From positions 27,342,001 to 27,406,000 of the forward strand of contig NC_083280.1 in NCBI RefSeq assembly GCF_963506605.1: 64,000 nt of DNA, in the 5' to 3' direction. Below the pieces are notes generated by a model. It made no database searches, was not told where the DNA came from, and worked only from the letters and a program-made list of their open reading frames with translations. Positions 1,605 to 43,270 of the stretch are shown here, piece after piece. The DNA comes from Zootoca vivipara. Taxonomy: Eukaryota. The first letter of the stretch is position 1; each line of letters begins with the position of its first letter. The translations under genes were made by a program, and so were the position numbers.

Positions 1605-2315
1605 CCTGACCCTTAAAAGTAACTTATTGGAGATCTAGGAGCTGTACCTAGAAAGAAGATGTCCCAGTTACACCAGACTAACTCCTATTAGTGATTCTCT
1701 GGGTCCAATCCTGTGTTTTTCACTTGCTTTGGAAGTGGCTTTCTTTCACATATTCTTATTTTGAACATCCTACTTACTTTGTACTTCATTGGCCTATGTC
1801 ATCTGAATTGTCCTGGCTCCACCCACTGAACTGTCATGCTCCACCCCCTTACCTGTGGACAGAAACTGGTCTCTATTTTCATCTGTGAGGTGATGGAGAG
1901 ACTAGGGCTGGGCCATGGCTATTATTTGAATGCATTTCCAGAGAAAAGCTGCCGAGACATTCAACAGGAAAGCAATTATGAGATTTGGTAATCAAAGTAC
2001 TGTTTGTGTCACCCTTTAAAAAAGGAGAGGCTCAAAGCTCATGGAAGCTCAGCAATGAAACAGCAGCAAATAATCATGACAAATGTAAGATTTAATTTGT
2101 TACAGTAATACAACTCATTACTTTCTTCTTGCCTCATACTTCCTTTTCAGTAACGAGAAAGGTGAGCCTGCTCCTGCAAATGGAGTTCTGCTGGCATCAC
2201 TCCTTTTCCCTGACAGCCACACATAAACAGCCACACACATTTGATTCATGAGAAACAAAAATGTAAAAGATAATTGTATCACAATGCATTGCTTAATTTA
2301 CTATCTAGATATTTG

Positions 2316-3125
2316 CGTGTGAAGACCTTTTAACCACACCCCGAAATAAATTCAGACCAGACTCAAATTTTAGGTTTCGTTTTTGGCAGTATTTAGGCCA
2401 CAACTTTATTGATTACAATCAAGTGAGTGGCTGCATAGGCTCTGGTTCGACTAGCTCCCTGCACCCTTGCAGGCAGCGCTGACCCTGGGCACCAACCATA
2501 GGTCAGCCTAGGGTGAACACCTGGGACAGTGGAAAGCAGGAGCCCTGTTAGACCTCCACCCAGATGTCCCCTGGACTCAGGCTCAGGGCACAACCCCTCA
2601 CAGGGAAGACCAACCATGAGTCCATGGATTCCTTCTTAAAGGAATACCCAACGAATAGGGATGGCTAGGCATCCTACCACCCCTATCCACAAGAAACAGA
2701 GCCTATCCACAACCTTACAAGTTGTGACGATTTGCTATGTGGCACGCGAAACCCAAATGGCACCAGCCAATCAGCCAAGTGGGGGAAATTCCTGCCGTGC
2801 CCCTGTCCCAATGACAGATGACACACGACGGCATAGCAAGGTCAAGTGCAAGCCCTAAATATAGGGAGAGGTGGGCAAGTGTTCCAATGCACTGAGCCCA
2901 AAAGGGACACATGCATGGGCTTAAATAGAGGTCCCTCGATCAATTTGACTGGCATCCCATTGGCCCAATTGCACCCAAGATCAAGGGACCTCCAATAGGG
3001 TGTTGTGGCCACCCAAATGTTCCCACCCACAAGACAGGGTCTGGTTGCCAGGTCACATCACAACACGTGCCCTCTTAAGGGAGGACCCGATTTACTTAGT
3101 GGCAGGGAGATAAAATCAGGTCACA
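2316..3125 (-). mobile_element. solo LTR (LTR-A) with structured R region
   Basis: (T>C)GTGTG...TCACA ends; approximate 4-bp TSD tttg/cttg. On the minus strand: CCAAT (~2960), TATTTAAG (~2920-2928), AATAAA (2405-2410). Shares blocks with 15724-16490. Confidence 0.75.
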
Positions 3126-6625: not shown

Positions 6626-6757
6626 CTGTAGAGGGTGTACCCCTCTTGAGATTTCTAGCTTGCAGGACACTGTTTCCTGTACAGAGCAACCTCACCACAG
6701 TATTCCTTTTCTTGTCCTTCCCATAGGGTTTGCATTCAGAGAATTCTGATTCCACGG

Positions 6758-7649
6758 CATGGACGTAGCCAGGATGAAATTCAGGGGGGGCAAGGGGGGC
6801 AAAGGGGCAGGGCCAAGGGGCGGGGGGAGGGGCCACAGTGGGGCAAGGAAAGCTCCCTTCTCCCTTGCCAGCTTTCCCTCCTCCCGCCCCAGCGATCGCG
6901 GAGGGGATCGGAGCAGCCCGATTTCGGGCTGCTCCGACTCCCTCCTCCCCCTCCGCGATCGGCAGGGGCGAGGGGGCACCAGGAACAGCCCGAAATCGGG
7001 CTGCTCCGACTCCCTCCTCCCCCTCCGCGATCGGCAGGGGCGAGGGGGAGCCAGGATCAGCCCGAAATCGGGCTGCTCCGACTCCCTCCTCCCCCTCCGC
7101 GATCGGCAGGGGCGAGGGGGAGCCAGGATCAGCCCGGAATCGGGCTGCTCCGACTACCTCCTCCCCCTCCGCGATCGGCAGGGGCGAGGGGGAGCCAGGA
7201 TCAGCCCGAAATCGGGCTGCTCCGGCTACCTCCTCCCCCTCCGCGATCGGCAGGGGCGAGGGGGAGCCAGGATCAGCCCGAAATCGGGCTGCTCCGTCTA
7301 CCTCCTCCCCCTCCGCGATCGGCAGGGGCGAGGGGGAGCCAGGATCAGCCCGAAATCGGGCTGCTCCGACTACCTCCTCCCCCTCCGCGATCGGCAGGGG
7401 CGAGGGGGAGCCAGGATCAGCCCGGAATCGGGCTGCTCCGATCCCCTCCTCCCCCTCTGCAATCGCCGGGGCAGGTGGAGGGAAAGCCCCAGAGCTGCGC
7501 AAAGCGGTTGCCTGGCTTTCCCTCCACCCGCCCCACAGCCAGCCAGGGAGAAGGGAGAAGGCACCGGGCGGGCAGCGGGGCAGGCTGGCCAGCGCCCCTG
7601 CTTCTAGGGGGGGCAATTGCCCCCTCCTGCCCCCCTGCCTACGCCCATG
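6758..7649. mobile_element. non-autonomous hAT element containing a 72-bp minisatellite
   Basis: TIR catggacgtag/ctacgcccatg; perfect 8-bp TSD ttccacgg (6750-6757, 7650-7657). Confidence 0.92.
6914..7470. repeat. 72-bp GC-rich tandem repeat, ~7.7 copies
   Basis: cagcccg starts at 6914, 6986, 7058, 7130, 7202, 7274, 7346 and 7418; ORF track shows 24-aa periodicity. Confidence 0.95.
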
Positions 7650-10934: not shown

Positions 10935-13703
10935 TCTTTTTTCTTTCTATTTAGTGATCCCTTGTAGCCGAGTAAGATTGTCTTCCATAAACACGGTTTT
11001 AACAATGAGTCCGTGAGTGGCTGTGGAGGCCAATTCTGGATCCACACATCCTTCCACAGTGGGGACATTAGTTTCCAGGTGGGAGTTGATCACAGTGTGG
11101 ATTTGCCAACCATGCCTTCTTCTTAGCATGTTTCTCCCTTGCATCCTGAGATCGAGTGTCTTCAAAGCCCATGACACCTTTGGTAAAGGCTGTTCTCCAA
11201 CTGGAGTGCTCACAGGCCAGTGTTTCCCAGTTGTCAGTGTTTATACTACATTTTTTTAGATTTGCCTTGAGACAGTCTTTAAACCTCTTGTGTTGACCAC
11301 CAGCATTACGCTTTCCATTTTTAAGTTCGGAATAGAGTAGTTGCTTTGGAAGACGATCATGAGGCATCCACACAACATGACCAGTCCAACGAAGTTGATG
11401 TTGAGGAATCATTGCTTCAACACTGGTATCTTTACTTCTTCCAGTACACTGATATTAGTTCACCTGTCTTCCCAAGTGATGTGTAAACTTTTTCAGAGAC
11501 ATCATTGATGGAATCTTTCGAGGAGTTAGAGATGGTGTTTATAAGTGGTCCATGTTTCACAAGCATATAGTAAAGATGGTAGTACAATAGCTCTGTGAAC
11601 AAGTATTTTGGTTTCCCTGCGAATGTCCCGGTCCACAAACACTCTGCACTTCAATTGGGAGAAAGCCACACTCGCAGAGCTCAGGCGATGCTGGACTTTT
11701 GCATCAATGTTGGCCTTTGTGGAAAGGTAACTGCCTAGGGAGGAGAAGTGATCGACATTTTCCAATGTTACAACACTGAGTTGAATTTGTGGTGCTGCAG
11801 AGGGGTTATTATGTACTTGTTGTTGCAGCACTTTGGTTTTTTGGATGTTGAGTGATAGGCCAAGCTTTTTGTAAGCTTCTGTAAATATATTTAGGATGGT
11901 TTGGAGGTCATCCTCTGAGCGTGCACACACTACGTTGTCATCAGTATACTGAAGCTCTATGATGGAAGTTATGGTAACCTTACTTTTTGCTTTCAGCCTG
12001 CTCTGATTGAATAGCTTTCCATCTGTTCGATATATGATTTCTACTCCGGTGGGGACCTTCCCGTTGACAAAGTGTAGGATCATGGCAATGAAAATAATGA
12101 ATAGAGTTGGGGCAATATCACAACCCTGTTTAACACCTGATCCCACTGTGAATGGGATCTCACTTTGAGAGCCATTGTTATCTGCCATTGTTGCTGTCAT
12201 ATTATCATAGAGGAGCCGAATGATGTTTACAAATTTATCTGGGCAGCCAATTTTCAGAAGGACAGTCCACAGGGCATTACAATTTACAGTGTCAAAAGCC
12301 TTAGTCAGGTCAATAAACAGGGGTTGGTTTTGCTCTCTGCATTTTTCTTGAAGCTGTCGAGTGGTGAAAATCATGTCCACTGTCCCCCTAGAAGGCCGAA
12401 AACCATTTTGGGATTCAGGAAGGGTCACCTCATATATTGTTACGAGACTGTTTAATTTTGCCAGCCGCAGCTAATAGAGAGTTGCCTCAATAGTTTCCAC
12501 AATCAGTTCTGTCACCTTTTTTAAAGAGATTGATAATTTTGTCATCCCTAAAGTCTGCTGGGATTTCTTCTTTTTCCAGATTTTTTTTTGATGAGCTTGT
12601 GAAGTTGTTATGTAAGTTCAATTCCGCTCACTTTGAAGATTTTGGCAGGTCCACTGGCTTTGTTGTTTTTCATTTGGTTAATAGCTGTACACAACTCTCC
12701 CAGATTTGGAGATACTGTAAGCTCATCTCTAACTTGTTTTTGCAGAATTTGTGAGAGGACCTCAGCAGCTACGGGGGAGTTGCAGTTAAGGAGATGTTGG
12801 TAATGTTCTTTCCAGCGCAGTGCAATAGCTTCTTTATCTTTTAGACATGTGATACCATCTGCTGAGCATAGGGGGCATATGCCATGATTTATTGGCCCAT
12901 AGATGGTCTTTGTGGCTTTAAAGAAACTCTGTGCATCATGAGTGTCCGCTAAGTGCTGGATCTCTTGAGGTTTTTTTTTATCCACCAGGTGTTTTTCAGT
13001 TCTCTGGTTCTTCTTTGACCCTCAGCCTTAGCGTTGGCATAGGTTTTTTTCTTAGTGGCACAGTTTCTATCTCTTTGCCAGATCTGAAAGGCCTTCCTTT
13101 TCTTGTCAATCATGCATTCAATCTCACTGTCATTCTCATCAAACCAGTCCTGGTGTTTCTTGGTTTGGTATCCAATAGTTTGTTCACAGGCTGCAATAAT
13201 GGATGTTTTTAGCTTGGTCCAGTGTTCCCCGATGTTATCAGGGAATTCTGAAAGCAGATGATCCTTAAGAGTCATTTGGAAGCAATCCTGCTTAATGGAA
13301 TCTTGAAGGGCTTGAGTGTTCATTTTGCACCTTGGTTTCCTTCCTTGAAGCCTGCATTGAGGTATAATCTTGATAGCCATCATGGAGCGTATTAGTCGGT
13401 GATCTGTCCAGCAGTCATCAGCGCTCGTCATAGCTCTGGTAAGGAGCACATCACGGTGATCTTTAGCACAGACATAGTCTAAGAGGTGCCAGTGGTTTGA
13501 CCGAGGGTGCCTCCATGAAGTTTTAAATTTATTTTTCTGTCGAAAGAGTGTGTTGGTAATAACAAGGTTGTGCGCTGCATGTATTGTCAAAAGTAAGATT
13601 CCGTTCTGGTTGGTGTTGCCAACTCCTTCTTTCCCAATAGTCCCAGGCCACAGATCGAGATCTCACCCAACTCTTGCATTAAAATCACCCAGCAGGATAA
13701 TTG
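10935..13703 (-). mobile_element. RTE-clade LINE, 5'-truncated and disrupted (endonuclease-RT-C-terminus)
   Basis: ILLGDFNARVG and WHLLDY endonuclease motifs; QNGFRPSR, FIDLTKAFDTV, GVKQGC and LQYTDD RT motifs; QLRWTGHV..M...RLPKQLLYSEL. Contains frameshifts and stops. Confidence 0.95.
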
Positions 13704-15718: not shown

Positions 15719-15723
15719 TCCAT

Positions 15724-16490
15724 TGTGTGGCAATAGCCCTCCTTCCCATGTAATAAAGACTCATGACACAGTGATTAAGATTTAATTGGGTGGTTAAGGC
15801 CACAACTTTATTAATTATGCATGTTGAGCGGAATTGGCTTAGGCGTTGGAACCTAACAGACTATATCCGACTCCAACCCGTGTGTTGAAGTCTGTGAGAA
15901 GTTAACCACCAGAAAGGAGCCCCGCGACGTAGATCTACTAGAGCTCCTCCTGTGGCCACCGAAGGGCGTGCCTTACGGCCCAGGCAACTCCAGGCTCAGG
16001 ACCAAGCCTCGCCCCCGGAATCCTTTAACGGAATTACTTCTCCAAATTTGGGCAGCTGATGACGTAGCCTGCCCCTCCTCCATCTAATTGTTATGCAAAT
16101 TTCCAACGCCTAACCGCCTAACCTAAGTTGTGACGACATGCTACGAGGTAGGCGAAAAACCCATCATGGCTAGCCCAGTATGGGAAAAATCCTACCCAGC
16201 CCCCTGGCCAACCAGGGCGACCAACTGACGTCCACAGCAGCGTCCCCTTACCTCTTTTTAAGGGGTGGGCGGGCGGGTGAATTGTTCGCTCCGGCGAAGA
16301 GGGACGAAAGAGGGAGCTTTCCCCGCCTGCAGAGTGCTTAAAGTTGGTGGCCCCGCCCCGACCGACCTCATTGGCTGGTCGGGGGGTGACGCAGGCGGGA
16401 ACCTACCATTGCGTAGGGGCTGAGCTTGCAGCCCCTACGCGATGGTACAGTCGGGCAGCCCACAACCCCACCTCCGTCGCAGGCGCGGAA
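15724..16490 (-). mobile_element. solo LTR (LTR-B) with structured R region; right end approximate
   Basis: TGTGTG left end. On the minus strand: CCAAT (~16370), GC box (~16351), TTTAAG (~16340), AATAAA (15807-15812). CpG-rich, suggesting a young insertion; homologous blocks to LTR-A. Confidence 0.78.
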
Positions 16491-17294
16491 GTGGCTTTCT
16501 TATGTTCTTAGTTTTTTCCCCATTTAAATAGAACTGAATATCAGCCAGAGTGCTGCACCTGAAGGAGGGGGAAATGCAACCAGTCTCCATAGCTCTGTCA
16601 AGTATAGAGCAGTGCTGCAATAGTTATGTAGACAACTTTTCCCTGCTTGCCATTTGGATGGTTGCCTTTGGACAGCTCCTACCTTCCTCAGTTGTTACTC
16701 CGTACAACTAAGAAATGCTGTGGTACACCTGCATGAGCCTCCATCTGTCCCTGAGGCAACAAAATGTGTCTCTTCCATATCGGTCTTTACAGCCACAGCA
16801 AGCACTGTAACTCTCCAAGAGTTTGACTTCACCCCTGAAGGCACACTCTCCCATTGTCTCCCGTGACAGACAGATGCAAAAAATAATTTTTGTGAGAGGG
16901 ATAAACCAATTGTGTCAATAACAAGAGGCAACATAATGGTTTCGTTTATTAAAACAATAAAAACAGGCCACCAGGAGTGGAGCTCCAAAGCAGGCAAAAT
17001 AATGAGTTAACTACACAACAAAGAGGTTGATAAAATCAGAAGTACCCAGCCAGCACCAGAGAATTGGATCCACTGGAAGCCAAAGCTCATCAGGAGTAAG
17101 AGTAGACTTACAGAAGACAGAGTTTCTGCACAAAAGCAAAAGATGTGATGCTGAAAGGCTATGTCTCCTTGGGGTGCAACAAGACAAATAATATTTCCCT
17201 CAGCACTGTTTTGAAAAAACTGCACAATATCGGAAGGTAACTAACCTATTCCCATTATATGCACATATCGTATCAGGGCTACAATAGCTACAAT

Positions 17295-29484: not shown

Positions 29485-29632
29485 TTCTGGGATAGCTCAG
29501 TTGGTAGAGCATGAGACTCTTAATCTCAGGGTCATGGGTTCAAGTCCCACATTGGGTAAAATATTCCTGCATTGCAGAGGGTTGGACTAGAAGACTTTCG
29601 TGGTCCGTCCAACTTTACAATTCTATTATTCT
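29485..29632 (+). mobile_element. tRNA-Lys(CTT)-derived SINE with CR1-type 3' tail
   Basis: tagctcagttggtagagcatgagactcttaatctcagggtc.tgggttc matches tRNA-Lys(CTT); followed by gggttggactaga...tccaactttacaattcta, like the CR1 tail. Confidence 0.88.
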
Positions 29633-34954: not shown

Positions 34955-35735
34955 CCAAAAGCAAACAAGATGAATTTTAACAAGGAAAAATGTAAAGTAC
35001 TACACTTGGGCAAAAATAAATGAAAGGCACAAATACAGGATGGGAGACATCTGGCTTGAGAGCAGTACATGTGAAAAGGATCTAGGAGTCTTGGTAGACC
35101 ACAAACTTGACATGAGTCAACAGTGTGATGCAGCAGCTAAAAAAGCCAATGCAATTCTGGGCTGCATCAATAGGAGTATAGCATCTAGATCAAGGGAAGT
35201 AATAGTACCACTGTATTCTGCTCTGGTCAGACCTCACCTAGAGTGCTGTGTCCAGTTCTGGGCACCACAGTTCAAGAAGGATACTGACAAGCTGGAAAGT
35301 GTTCAGAAGAGGGCAACCAAAATGGTCAAAGGCCTGGAAACGATGCCTTATGAGGAACGGCTTAGGGAGCTGGGTATGTTTAGCCTGGAGAAGAGAAGGT
35401 TAAGGGGTGATATGATAGCCATGTTCAAATATATAAAAGGATGTCATATAGAGGGGGGAGAAAGATTGTTTTCTGCTGCTGCAGAGAAGCGGACACGGAG
35501 CAATGGATTCAAGCTACAAGAAAGAAGATACTACCTAAACATTAGGAAGAACTTCCTGACAGTAAGAGCTGTTCGGCAGTGGAATTTGCTCCCAAGGAGT
35601 GTGGTGGAGTCTCCTTCTTTGGAGGTCTTTAAGCAGAGGCTTGACAGGCATATGTCAAGAATGCTTTGATGGTGTTTCCTGATTGGCAGGGGGTTGGACT
35701 GGATGGCCCTTGTGGTCTCTTCCAACTCTATGATT
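34955..35735 (+). mobile_element. young 5'-truncated CR1 LINE (ORF2 C-terminus + short 3'UTR)
   Basis: [50 protein letters not shown]; ends ccaactctatgatt. Confidence 0.96.
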
Positions 35736-37381
35736 GTTTGAAAGAGGGGAGGTGCAAGAGGTCTCTCTCTCCCCTCAGGCCTGTGTGTGTCAGACCAGGA
35801 AGCCAAGAGCAAGTTCTGCTCCAATGCCAATAGGACTGGATGTCTGTGCAAGCCAGCCAGTAAATGGTTTTGTGTAGAGCATGCGCCATTCCCAGGAAGG
35901 TGGAAGTCATATGCATTGAATGTGCTTTAAATGTAAGGCATGTGAGCAGAGGTCAAGGGCTACAGGTTGCCCAGCCCTGCTGTACTGGATAGACCTTTGT
36001 CCTATCCAGCAGCAAGATTGTGTTTATGTACAGGGTGATCTTAGGCTCTCAACTGAAGCTACCAACAGGGTTCTTGAGGATAAACACAGAGGATCACATA
36101 CCCTGCCTTGAGCTCTTTGGGAAGCAGCCATAAAGAAGATATATATACTATATATTGAACTAAAAGGGAAAGGGGGGGGGATTCAAACAAAATGAAAGGA
36201 CAACCATCACAGGAAAAACACAAACTATACCTGGGGGCAGCAGGGGCAAGAAGCTCTGTGCCAATCCTTGCTCCCTTTTCTTTGTTCATTTAAGAGGCTC
36301 CATTTTCAATGTCAGTTCCGGAACACAAGAAATAACAGCAGAGAAGCAAGTAACTCGGAACGTGTTGGTGGAGCTCCTTCTCTCACCAGTAGTTACTACC
36401 AGCAGCAGCCTGATCATGGATTAGCAGGACATCCTCTGTGACCAGAGGCATGACTTCTCTCTAAGAGGCTTCAGCACCAATTCCTCTCAATTTAGAAATG
36501 AGGCTTTGACATCTGTCCTTTCTAAACAGGAAGGGAATCTATTCCACAAACATTAACAGAAACTAGAAAACCGCATTATTCATGCTGGAGAGCCGGTGTG
36601 GGGATGAAAGTGAAGGGTGTCTGTTAGGCTTTGCTTTCTATTGCAAATTGGGAATTGGAAATGTAATGCTTGCTAGACCGAATCTTGTACCCCAGTGGAA
36701 AGGTTTGGCAGATTACATGGTTTTGCTATTAGTTAGTTTCACTTCTTCAAAGGAAGAACGGGAGGTGGAAAGAGAATGTAACTAAAGACACTCTGAAGAA
36801 GGCTGCATGCTTTCAGGATCATGAACATGCTCCCTGTACACAATGTAGCAGGAAATCAAGAGAGTTTAAGAGGTCTTATTTCAGAAAACTTGGTCGTTGG
36901 GTTTGGCCCTATTCCCTCTCTCTTAGAGCTCCATGCTGGTGATTTCTTTGCATGCCTCAATATATCCTTGATGCAAAAAGGTGAAAATGCAACAAATTGG
37001 TAAGGATGTTGGTTGGACATTCTGTCTTCTGATTTAATAACCCTGAAACCAGTTGCCCTCTGTTGACCCATACCTAGTCTGCTTGTAGTAGCTGGTACCT
37101 CAGGCATGGTTGTACAGTGAAAATGTGATCTCTTTCAGAGTGATTGAACAAATCAGCAAAATCTGGACAGTCTGAGACCAATGAGCTAATAAGTATGGGT
37201 ATCCATGACATGCAGAAGTGTACAGTATCCAGAAACCATGAGAGCTTGAGGCTATAGAAAAACAAAAAGCAACATAAATTGTGGAGATGGTGCCATATCA
37301 TCATCCCATTATGTTCCAAACCATCTTTATTGAAACCTACACAACTTAGGAGACCAGTTCTAAAGATAACATCTATCTAGG

Positions 37382-42666: not shown

Positions 42667-43270
42667 CATAGAATCATAGAGTTGGAAGAGACCACAAGGG
42701 CCATCCAGTCCAACCCCCTGCCAAGCAGGAAACACCATCAAAGCATTCCTGACATATGGCCGTCAAGCCTCTGCTTAAAGACCTCCAAAGAAGGAGACTC
42801 CACCACACTCCTTGGGAGCAAATTCCACTGCCGAACAGCTCTTACTGTCAGGAAGTTCTTCCTAATGTTTAGGTGGAATCTTCTTTCTTGTAGTTTGAAT
42901 CCATTGCTCTGTGTCCACTTCTCTGAGGCAGCAGAAAACAACCTTTCTCCCTCCTCTATATGACATCCTTTTATATATTTGAACATGGCTATCATATCAC
43001 CCCTTAACCTTCTCTTCTCCAGGCTAAACATACGCAGCTCCCTAAGCTGTTCCTCATAAGGCATCGTTTCCAGGCCTTTGACCATTTTGGTTGCCCTCTT
43101 CTGGACACGTTCCAGCTTGTCAGTATCCTTCTTGAACTGTGGTGCCCAGAACTGGACACAGTACTCCAGGTGAGGTCTGACCAGACCAGAATACAGTGGT
43201 ACTATTACTTCCCTAGATCTAGATGCTATACTCCTATTGATGCAGCCCAGAATTGCATTGGCTTTTTGCA
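42667..43270 (-). mobile_element. young 5'-truncated CR1 LINE, same family as 34955-35735
   Basis: ORF 42738-43280 is nearly identical to 35040-35669; (ctatgatt)n tail. Confidence 0.96.

Follow-up and report, generated by a model that had tools for sequence, protein, structure and literature searches.

The window, by which we mean the whole 64,000-nt stretch of DNA analysed here, carries on its minus strand two units, LTR-B and LTR-A, which are solo A-C-B remnants of two subfamilies of Ngaro, a tyrosine-recombinase retrotransposon (Table 1). A preliminary description had regarded them as both LTRs of a single element, but they are unrelated solo remnants. A repeat search of the window did not pair the two units with each other, and a single provirus spanning both was rejected because they belong to different subfamilies and tblastn of the four element ORFs against the window gave no match. 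A retroviral or Gypsy LTR was rejected as well, since there is neither a near-identical flanking pair nor any element ORF in the window, the solo units end in AAA...CAA and lack TG...CA, and no target-site duplication was found at the flanks of LTR-B. An Rfam search with the whole unit returned nothing at the gathering score and only matches with chance-level E-values.

Table 1 Features of the two Ngaro remnants, in window coordinates
Feature	Position	Strand	Basis or remark
Solo A-C-B unit of a young Ngaro subfamily, 776 nt (LTR-B)	15723..16498	-	Boundaries common to all copies
A repeat (220 nt), which also opens full elements at their 5' end	16279..16498	-	Copy comparison
CCAAT and TATA-like word in A repeat	CCAAT 16374-16370; TATA-like 16343-16337	-	Predicted promoter
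Predicted start, pyrimidine Inr-like	near 16312	-	Read depth climbs over the 3' end of A
Spacer C (160 nt), which separates A2 from B2 and is single-copy in full elements	16119..16278	-	
PAN-type ENE-like hairpin: lower stem, U5 tracts, upper stem	16147..16196	-	
U5 tracts of the ENE-like hairpin	16189-16185 and 16159-16155	-	
Helix (a) 5' arm, in spacer C	16125..16134	-	
B repeat, 396 nt, twice (B1, B2) in full elements	15723..16118	-	
Helix (b) 5' arm	16101..16113	-	
About 250 nt looped out between the helix (b) arms, containing several covarying stems	15852..16100	-	
Helix (b) 3' arm	15839..15851	-	
Stretch of B with which the internal antisense strand would pair at B1, ending in AAUAAA 15812-15807	15807..15838	-	Strand missing from the solo
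Helix (a) 3' arm, covering the last two A of AAUAAA	15799..15808	-	
Estimated 3' end region	15780..15790	-	Conserved CCA; read pile-up of the sister subfamily 27 nt past the hexamer
Solo A-C-B unit of an older, diverged Ngaro subfamily (LTR-A)	2313..3093	-	Copies 87-90% alike
LTR-A weaker ENE-like hairpin	2741..2796	-	Lower-stem mismatch in the window copy
LTR-A helix (a) 5' arm	2719..2728	-	Out-competed by a local hairpin
LTR-A helix (b) 5' arm	2693..2706	-	
LTR-A helix (b) 3' arm	2435..2448	-	
LTR-A helix (a) 3' arm	2397..2406	-	

Ten of the first 30 LTR-B-like loci carried an extra full copy of the last 396 nt directly upstream, preceded by coding sequence, and the order of the full element is A1-RT/RH-YR-SGNH-B1-A2-C-B2. 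Among 109 ten-kb loci that we fetched, 77 had both B1 and B2, and 71 of those had A1 and A2 too; the 32 loci without a full B1 and B2 pair were left out, and the 77 were reduced at 95% identity to 37 representatives, whose pairwise identity goes down to 51%. The element ORFs contain a reverse transcriptase (PF00078, E 1.5e-11), a weakly matching RNase H-like domain (PF13456), a tyrosine recombinase that is barely within the cut-off (PF00589, E 5.6e-6) and has conserved YR motifs, and, past it, a GDSL/SGNH ORF with a weak match (PF00657, E 0.0066), one homologue of which is named SGNH hydrolase. SGNH motifs precede B1 in the LTR-A family as well. No match to a Dam methyltransferase was found in the four ORFs, whose closest relatives are from lacertid lizards. 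For annotation, it matters that thousands of candidate matches in this genome (2188 for the LTR-B unit and 3766 for the LTR-A unit at first look) resemble solo LTRs but are Ngaro remnants.

The split repeats, the ORF set and the solo remnants of the lizard element are like those of Ngaros from Xenopus and Cafeteria: the excerpts consulted give the order A1-ORFs-B1-A2-B2 with RT/RH, YR and an SGNH hydrolase for Xenopus DIRS-53_XT (PMC9210276), and solo AB remnants for the Cafeteria elements (PMC8547959). Beyond what those excerpts mention, the lizard element has a 160-nt single-copy spacer with an ENE-like hairpin between A2 and B2, and an internal antisense strand before B1. A unique spacer between A and B is also present in the SIRE of VIPER, given in the excerpt as A, a unique 30 bp and B (PMC6681497), whereas the Ngaro spacer carries the ENE-like hairpin.

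Several minor features of the layout were noted along the way. Some elements have tandem A-C-B units at their 3' end (L007/L008, L068, L178 and L184), produced by unequal recombination or by mini-circle insertion, and L115, L116, L128 and L170 have inserted into a satellite that repeats about every 146 nt. Upstream of CCAAT, repeat A contains a strong GC-rich hairpin (16447-16404), which matches itself in BLAST. A second promoter in spacer C was rejected because its TATA-like word at 16262 is missing from distant clades.

The hairpin in spacer C has the features of a PAN-type ENE, namely a U-rich internal loop (about 5+5 U) between stems and a short 3' bulge beside the G-C stem, and a scan of the window for this motif gave two hits on the minus strand and none on the plus strand. 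In the LTR-A family the loop is weaker, with 3-4 U per side. The motif was found in spacer C of 36 of the 37 representatives but never in the 37 stretches that precede B1. The 5' arm of helix (a), which is invariant within an otherwise variable spacer and lies 11-13 nt past the ENE, was likewise present in C of all 77 elements and before B1 in none. Because both sit in C, the helix geometry of the preliminary description is limited to the final repeat and the solos.

On a letter check of the window, all eight helix segments in the LTR-B and LTR-A units lie where the preliminary description had put them, although the strings it quoted for helix (b) are those of the plus strand, so that the two arms swap on the minus-strand RNA. 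It was also right that helix (b) occupies the same position in both units, but the two are homologous with a common core and not of different sequence. Helix (a) does overlap AAUAAA as claimed, although merely the last two A are paired, and the looping out of about 250 nt by helices (a) and (b) together is indeed predicted. Helix (a) by itself is within chance (34/300 shuffles do as well for LTR-B, and 63/300 in the second comparison). In LTR-B it has 10 bp including one U-G pair, and helix (b) has 13 Watson-Crick pairs, matched by none of 300 dinucleotide shuffles, with a pair probability of mostly 0.9-1.0 in the folding prediction. Helix (b) of LTR-A has 13 of 14 positions paired, and its longest perfect run of 10 was equalled by 13 of 300 shuffles. 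The folding z of the whole region was -2.98 for LTR-B and -5.16 for LTR-A.

Since shuffles alone often reach 10 bp, the support for helix (a) is its conservation. In an alignment of 43 C-B sequences, six of them from the LTR-A family, the core pairs of helix (a), the U-G wobble included, were kept in 40-43 of 43 with no compensatory change; helix (a) is so nearly invariant that covariation cannot test it. Helix (b), which lies inside B, was kept with double-sided (compensatory) changes at 4 of 12 columns, and the 250-nt domain that it encloses, for which Rfam gave no match, showed many more double-sided changes than helix (b). The expectation that the helices are conserved across copies is borne out. 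Helix (a) was predicted with a probability of at least 0.58 in all 19 B-lineage representatives and at least 0.9 in 17 of them. Of 30 solos of the LTR-A family, 7 could not be anchored and 14 of the 23 anchored were folded: the window LTR-A prefers a local hairpin over helix (a) (p=0.02), with helix (b) still predicted, and helix (a) reached at least 0.6 in 12 of the 13 others. The helices are real, conserved structure; their function, set out below, is inferred. We also observed a third possible pairing, 16203-16201 with 15789-15787 on the minus strand (3-7 bp and -5 to -11 kcal/mol in 19 representatives), which could join the ENE and helix (a) as one junction at the estimated cleavage site.

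The sequence in front of B1 differs. There, an internal strand, with a small hairpin after it, can pair with B, starting where helix (b) ends and continuing toward AAUAAA, with duplex energies of -24 to -41 kcal/mol (mean z -6 against shuffles; cognate -34.4 vs non-cognate -26.8 kcal/mol). The antisense strand extends into AAUAAA in 33 of the 37 representatives, and the window's own subfamily is among the four in which it ends short of the hexamer. Double-sided changes were found at 10 of 26 columns of the duplex, and the first three hexamer positions were paired in 33-36 of 40. For the LTR-A family, an arm derived beforehand from its B sequence gave 5 genomic matches and a control pattern gave 0; four of the five lie directly behind SGNH motifs, and the 4 scorable duplexes have -24 to -34 kcal/mol (L209 was mis-anchored and its duplex left out). 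In 27 of 37 the B1 duplex was more stable in its sense version, and in 13 of 13 the C-B fold was more stable as sense than as antisense, so pairing in RNA is favoured over pairing in cDNA.

We then compared the cost of opening the hexamer in the two contexts. At equilibrium, with 25 nt downstream included, it was 3.02 kcal/mol at B1 and 2.74 at B2, with B1 higher in 23 of 37 and the order reversed in most of the window's own clade. In a nascent chain ending 3 nt past the hexamer, a cut-off picked after the equilibrium result, it was 2.33 vs 0.33 kcal/mol, with B1 higher in 31 of 37, and the contrast was weakest in the window's clade (1.07 vs 0.40 kcal/mol). Masking costs of 2-4 kcal/mol, as modelled here, would be small. 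The picture is mixed: folding at equilibrium fails to distinguish B1 from B2, and the nascent fold shows a difference in most representatives. To judge from the predicted pairings, it is likely that in the first copy the upstream antisense strand hides part of the poly(A) signal.

Excerpts of related work describe comparable arrangements. In HIV-1 one of two identical poly(A) signals is repressed by structure (PMC2645353), and the analogy drawn in the preliminary description stands to the extent that one of two identical signals is predicted to be partly masked; the putative masking strand is the internal strand before B1 and not helix (a). Unlike in HIV-1, both Ngaro signals are at the 3' end, and the putative mask is a copy-specific flank, not a local hairpin, covering 3-5 nt. 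In HTLV-1 and BLV folding shortens a distance of more than 200 nt for 3' processing (PMC12789967), whereas the Ngaro folding would join the tail to the ENE and not the signal to the cleavage site. The ICR of DIRS-1, which is internal, past the ORFs, complementary to the terminal repeats and required for mobility (PMC7192593), differs from the Ngaro strand, which matches an inner part of B ending in AAUAAA and not the outer ends of the element.

Transcription was examined in three RNA runs of one study (about 6% of each), in which the reads come from many copies and are not assignable to the window locus. Reads of the element were sense-stranded. In the three runs, the internal|B1 junction was covered by 47, 4 and 31 reads, the C side of the C|B2 junction had a depth of 86, 14 and 3, and B|A readthrough joints numbered 4, 3 and 0. 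In run X15 the depth on a better-matched copy was about 7 over the 5' part of A, 29 over its 3' part, 65-92 over C and about 150 over B, and past the signal it was 47 and then 9; this run also gave 63 sense C|B joints, with internal ORFs at depth 0-10. Such a profile is what one would expect of a short RNA that begins at the A promoter and ends at the B signal, together with partial B1 readthrough. Ten first mates of X15 start 27 nt past the hexamer in the sister subfamily. In run X17, with 31 internal|B1 reads, a depth past the signal of about 0.3 and no B|A joint, transcripts seem to end mostly at B1, which speaks against strong masking; diverged A and ORF sequences map poorly, and in X17 such A repeats may have gone unmapped. 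None of the three runs displayed loose read ends bearing poly(A).

One joint in the reads was unusual. At L125:8002-8248 (about window 16107-15862), six sense X15 reads with 3 starts jump back 247 nt, leaving close to the 3' arm of helix (b) and resuming at the 5' arm. The looped-out domain may have formed a circle, the animal sampled may carry a duplication, or the joint may be an RT artefact; a search of G000 with one exact pattern found no genomic copy of the joint.

Taken together, we lean, with slightly better than even confidence, towards a context-dependent switch of 3'-end formation in the 3' split direct repeats of Ngaro, in which B1 would be partly masked and the tail would be brought to the ENE at B2. 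This reading starts from the observed element identity, layout, motif placement, covariation, sense transcription and approximate 3' end. Full elements contain two B repeats, each with an AAUAAA, and the predicted fold of B would be set by the sequence that precedes it, provided that folding in vivo follows the prediction. At B1 the internal antisense strand of about 28 nt would lengthen helix (b) and, in most subfamilies, pair with the first 3-5 nt of the emerging AAUAAA. Such partial masking would let some transcripts pass the B|A junction. To judge from their layout and from models of such elements, RNA spanning this junction would be needed for replication. At B2 and in the solos, spacer C would supply helix (a) in place of the antisense strand. 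Helices (a) and (b) would then loop out about 250 nt. This would put the start of the tail, about 360 nt downstream in sequence, 12-19 nt from helix (a), whose other arm is separated by 12 nt from the ENE stem. If it works as in PAN and Evade, the U-rich loop would form a triple helix with the tail, and deadenylation would be slower. Two RNAs would be protected in this way: the genome at full length, and a short one of about 530 nt that starts at the A2 or solo promoter. The earlier proposal that the tail comes to lie beside the U-rich loop holds up for its geometry, as a prediction consistent with the placement of the motif in spacer C and with the drop of reads about 27 nt past the hexamer. 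The ENE and the tail are about 360 nt apart in sequence and come near only once folded, with the 3' end estimated from the 10-read pile-up.

In the parts of the sources consulted, an ENE has a U-rich internal loop flanked by two stems and lies upstream of a poly(A) site (PMC7583470; PMC12501189). Transposon ENEs include that of Evade/Copia93, which protects its RNA (PMC12501189), and about 200 in plants, fungi, slime mould and stickleback retroviruses. Unlike the ENEs of KSHV PAN and Evade, the lizard hairpin is found in an amniote host and in a carrier of the DIRS order; it lies about 360 nt from the tail, to which nested long-range helices would tie it, and its triplex is a predicted one. 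In the portion of the literature covered we found neither RNA structure nor ENEs nor poly(A) control described for Ngaro repeats; the ENE surveys of 2012 and 2016, in which an entry for DIRS is possible, were outside its scope. As far as that portion goes, Ngaro elements, transposon ENEs and the structural control of duplicated poly(A) signals are each known, and their combination in Ngaro repeats is new.

A possible, if somewhat unlikely, alternative to the switch is that the helices are mainly a scaffold for replication, which would mark the 5' border of B and hold the 3' end of the RNA at C|B2 for priming or template switching; the overlap with AAUAAA would then be incidental, and the ENE might still protect the tail. 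B1 and B2 differ along their whole length at just 66 sites over 77 elements, even though the poly(A) site has about 300 nt of B upstream of it, so B appears to be re-copied almost whole, up to a sharp border, but many of the 27 differences near the start of B are alignment-edge effects. The excerpt consulted calls the primer of DIRS-1 unknown (PMC7192593). Among 79 metagenome loci with distant Ngaros (25-40% YR identity), the layout of arm, hairpin, start of B and long helix was found without an adjacent AAUAAA in hydrolase-bearing elements of 30-35% YR identity, clearly in L241 and partially in L248, L219 and L222; the UGUGGCC...CCA motif is retained in L241 and L248, and four of seven elements lacking the hydrolase also have a significant upstream arm (equalled by at most 4 of 200 shuffles). 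Against a scaffold, however, extension from the end of helix (a) would omit the last 16 nt of C, the U-G wobble speaks against the arm being re-copied from a primer, and the lizard antisense strand tracks into the hexamer in four lineages with differing sequences. Because of the distant layout without AAUAAA and the near-identity of B1 and B2, we keep a role in replication open. The other tests on the distant set were less informative. An ENE scan of 55 of the 79 loci, most of them without B2, gave two stray hits, neither of them spacer-like in position. A duplex test (60 nt against the whole B) was insensitive, with z of -1.2 to -3.5 even for lizard controls, and its replacement, a best-helix test, failed to detect 2 of 4 lizard controls, so its negatives mean little.

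We consider it quite unlikely that helix (a) is absent in vivo, its arms being separate conserved motifs (a protein site or one related to tRNA-His), with helix (b) and the B1 duplex real and the tail reaching the ENE less directly. The absence of covariation in helix (a) and the local hairpin favoured by the window LTR-A would fit this, as would the 9 nt directly past AAUAAA (15806-15798 on the minus strand), which are identical to the host tRNA-His anticodon arm, maybe by chance. On the other hand, the 5' arm is invariant in a variable spacer at a fixed distance from the ENE, the predicted probability of the helix is high in most representatives, and in duplex folding the 5' part of tRNA-His and spacer C formed interrupted pairings only. 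On the same ground, tRNA-His binding at the spacer C arm as a primer site was rejected.

It is highly unlikely that helix (a) itself hides AAUAAA and decides between polyadenylation in the 5' and the 3' LTR, in the manner of the HIV-1 polyA hairpin. The last 1-2 A are paired and the hexamer costs about 2.7 kcal/mol to open at equilibrium, but there is no retroviral LTR pair, the arm is absent before B1 and found only at the final copy, whose signal must be used, and reads end right past that signal; this part of the preliminary description is not supported. That the complementarities arose by chance, or are neutral remains of old inverted duplications, deserves almost no credence: a 10-bp helix like (a) is common in shuffles, but compensatory changes across clades as little as 51% alike and the successful prediction of the LTR-A family arm largely exclude a chance origin of helix (b) and the B1 duplex.

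A retrotransposon with split direct repeats has to be transcribed through its first poly(A) signal and yet end at the second; in the literature excerpts covered we found no description of how such elements manage both signals or prime reverse transcription. The switch reading offers a covariation-backed structural model for passing the first signal and stopping at the second and, if true, would extend ENE triple helices to an amniote element of the DIRS order, with long-distance delivery of the tail. A bolder version, which we put forward as speculation and think rather improbable, is that the B repeat is an ancient RNA machine whose flanking strand sets either "read through" (B1) or "end, protect and prime" (B2), and that the ENE-stabilised short A-C-B RNA is a part of replication, as primer, second template or independently mobile mini-element. 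If true, it would supply the missing priming step of these retrotransposons.

Other features of the window were noted outside the Ngaro units. A fragment of reverse transcriptase (PF00078), unrelated to the units, lies at 11526-12470 on the minus strand and resembles what we take to be an RTE-type LINE. A 72-bp tandem array at 6753-7615 has open frames on both strands, and the segments 35140-35740 and 42667-43267 form a 601-nt inverted pair that is 96% complementary, 6.9 kb apart. A partial tRNA match in Rfam at 29493-29550 is possibly the head of a SINE.
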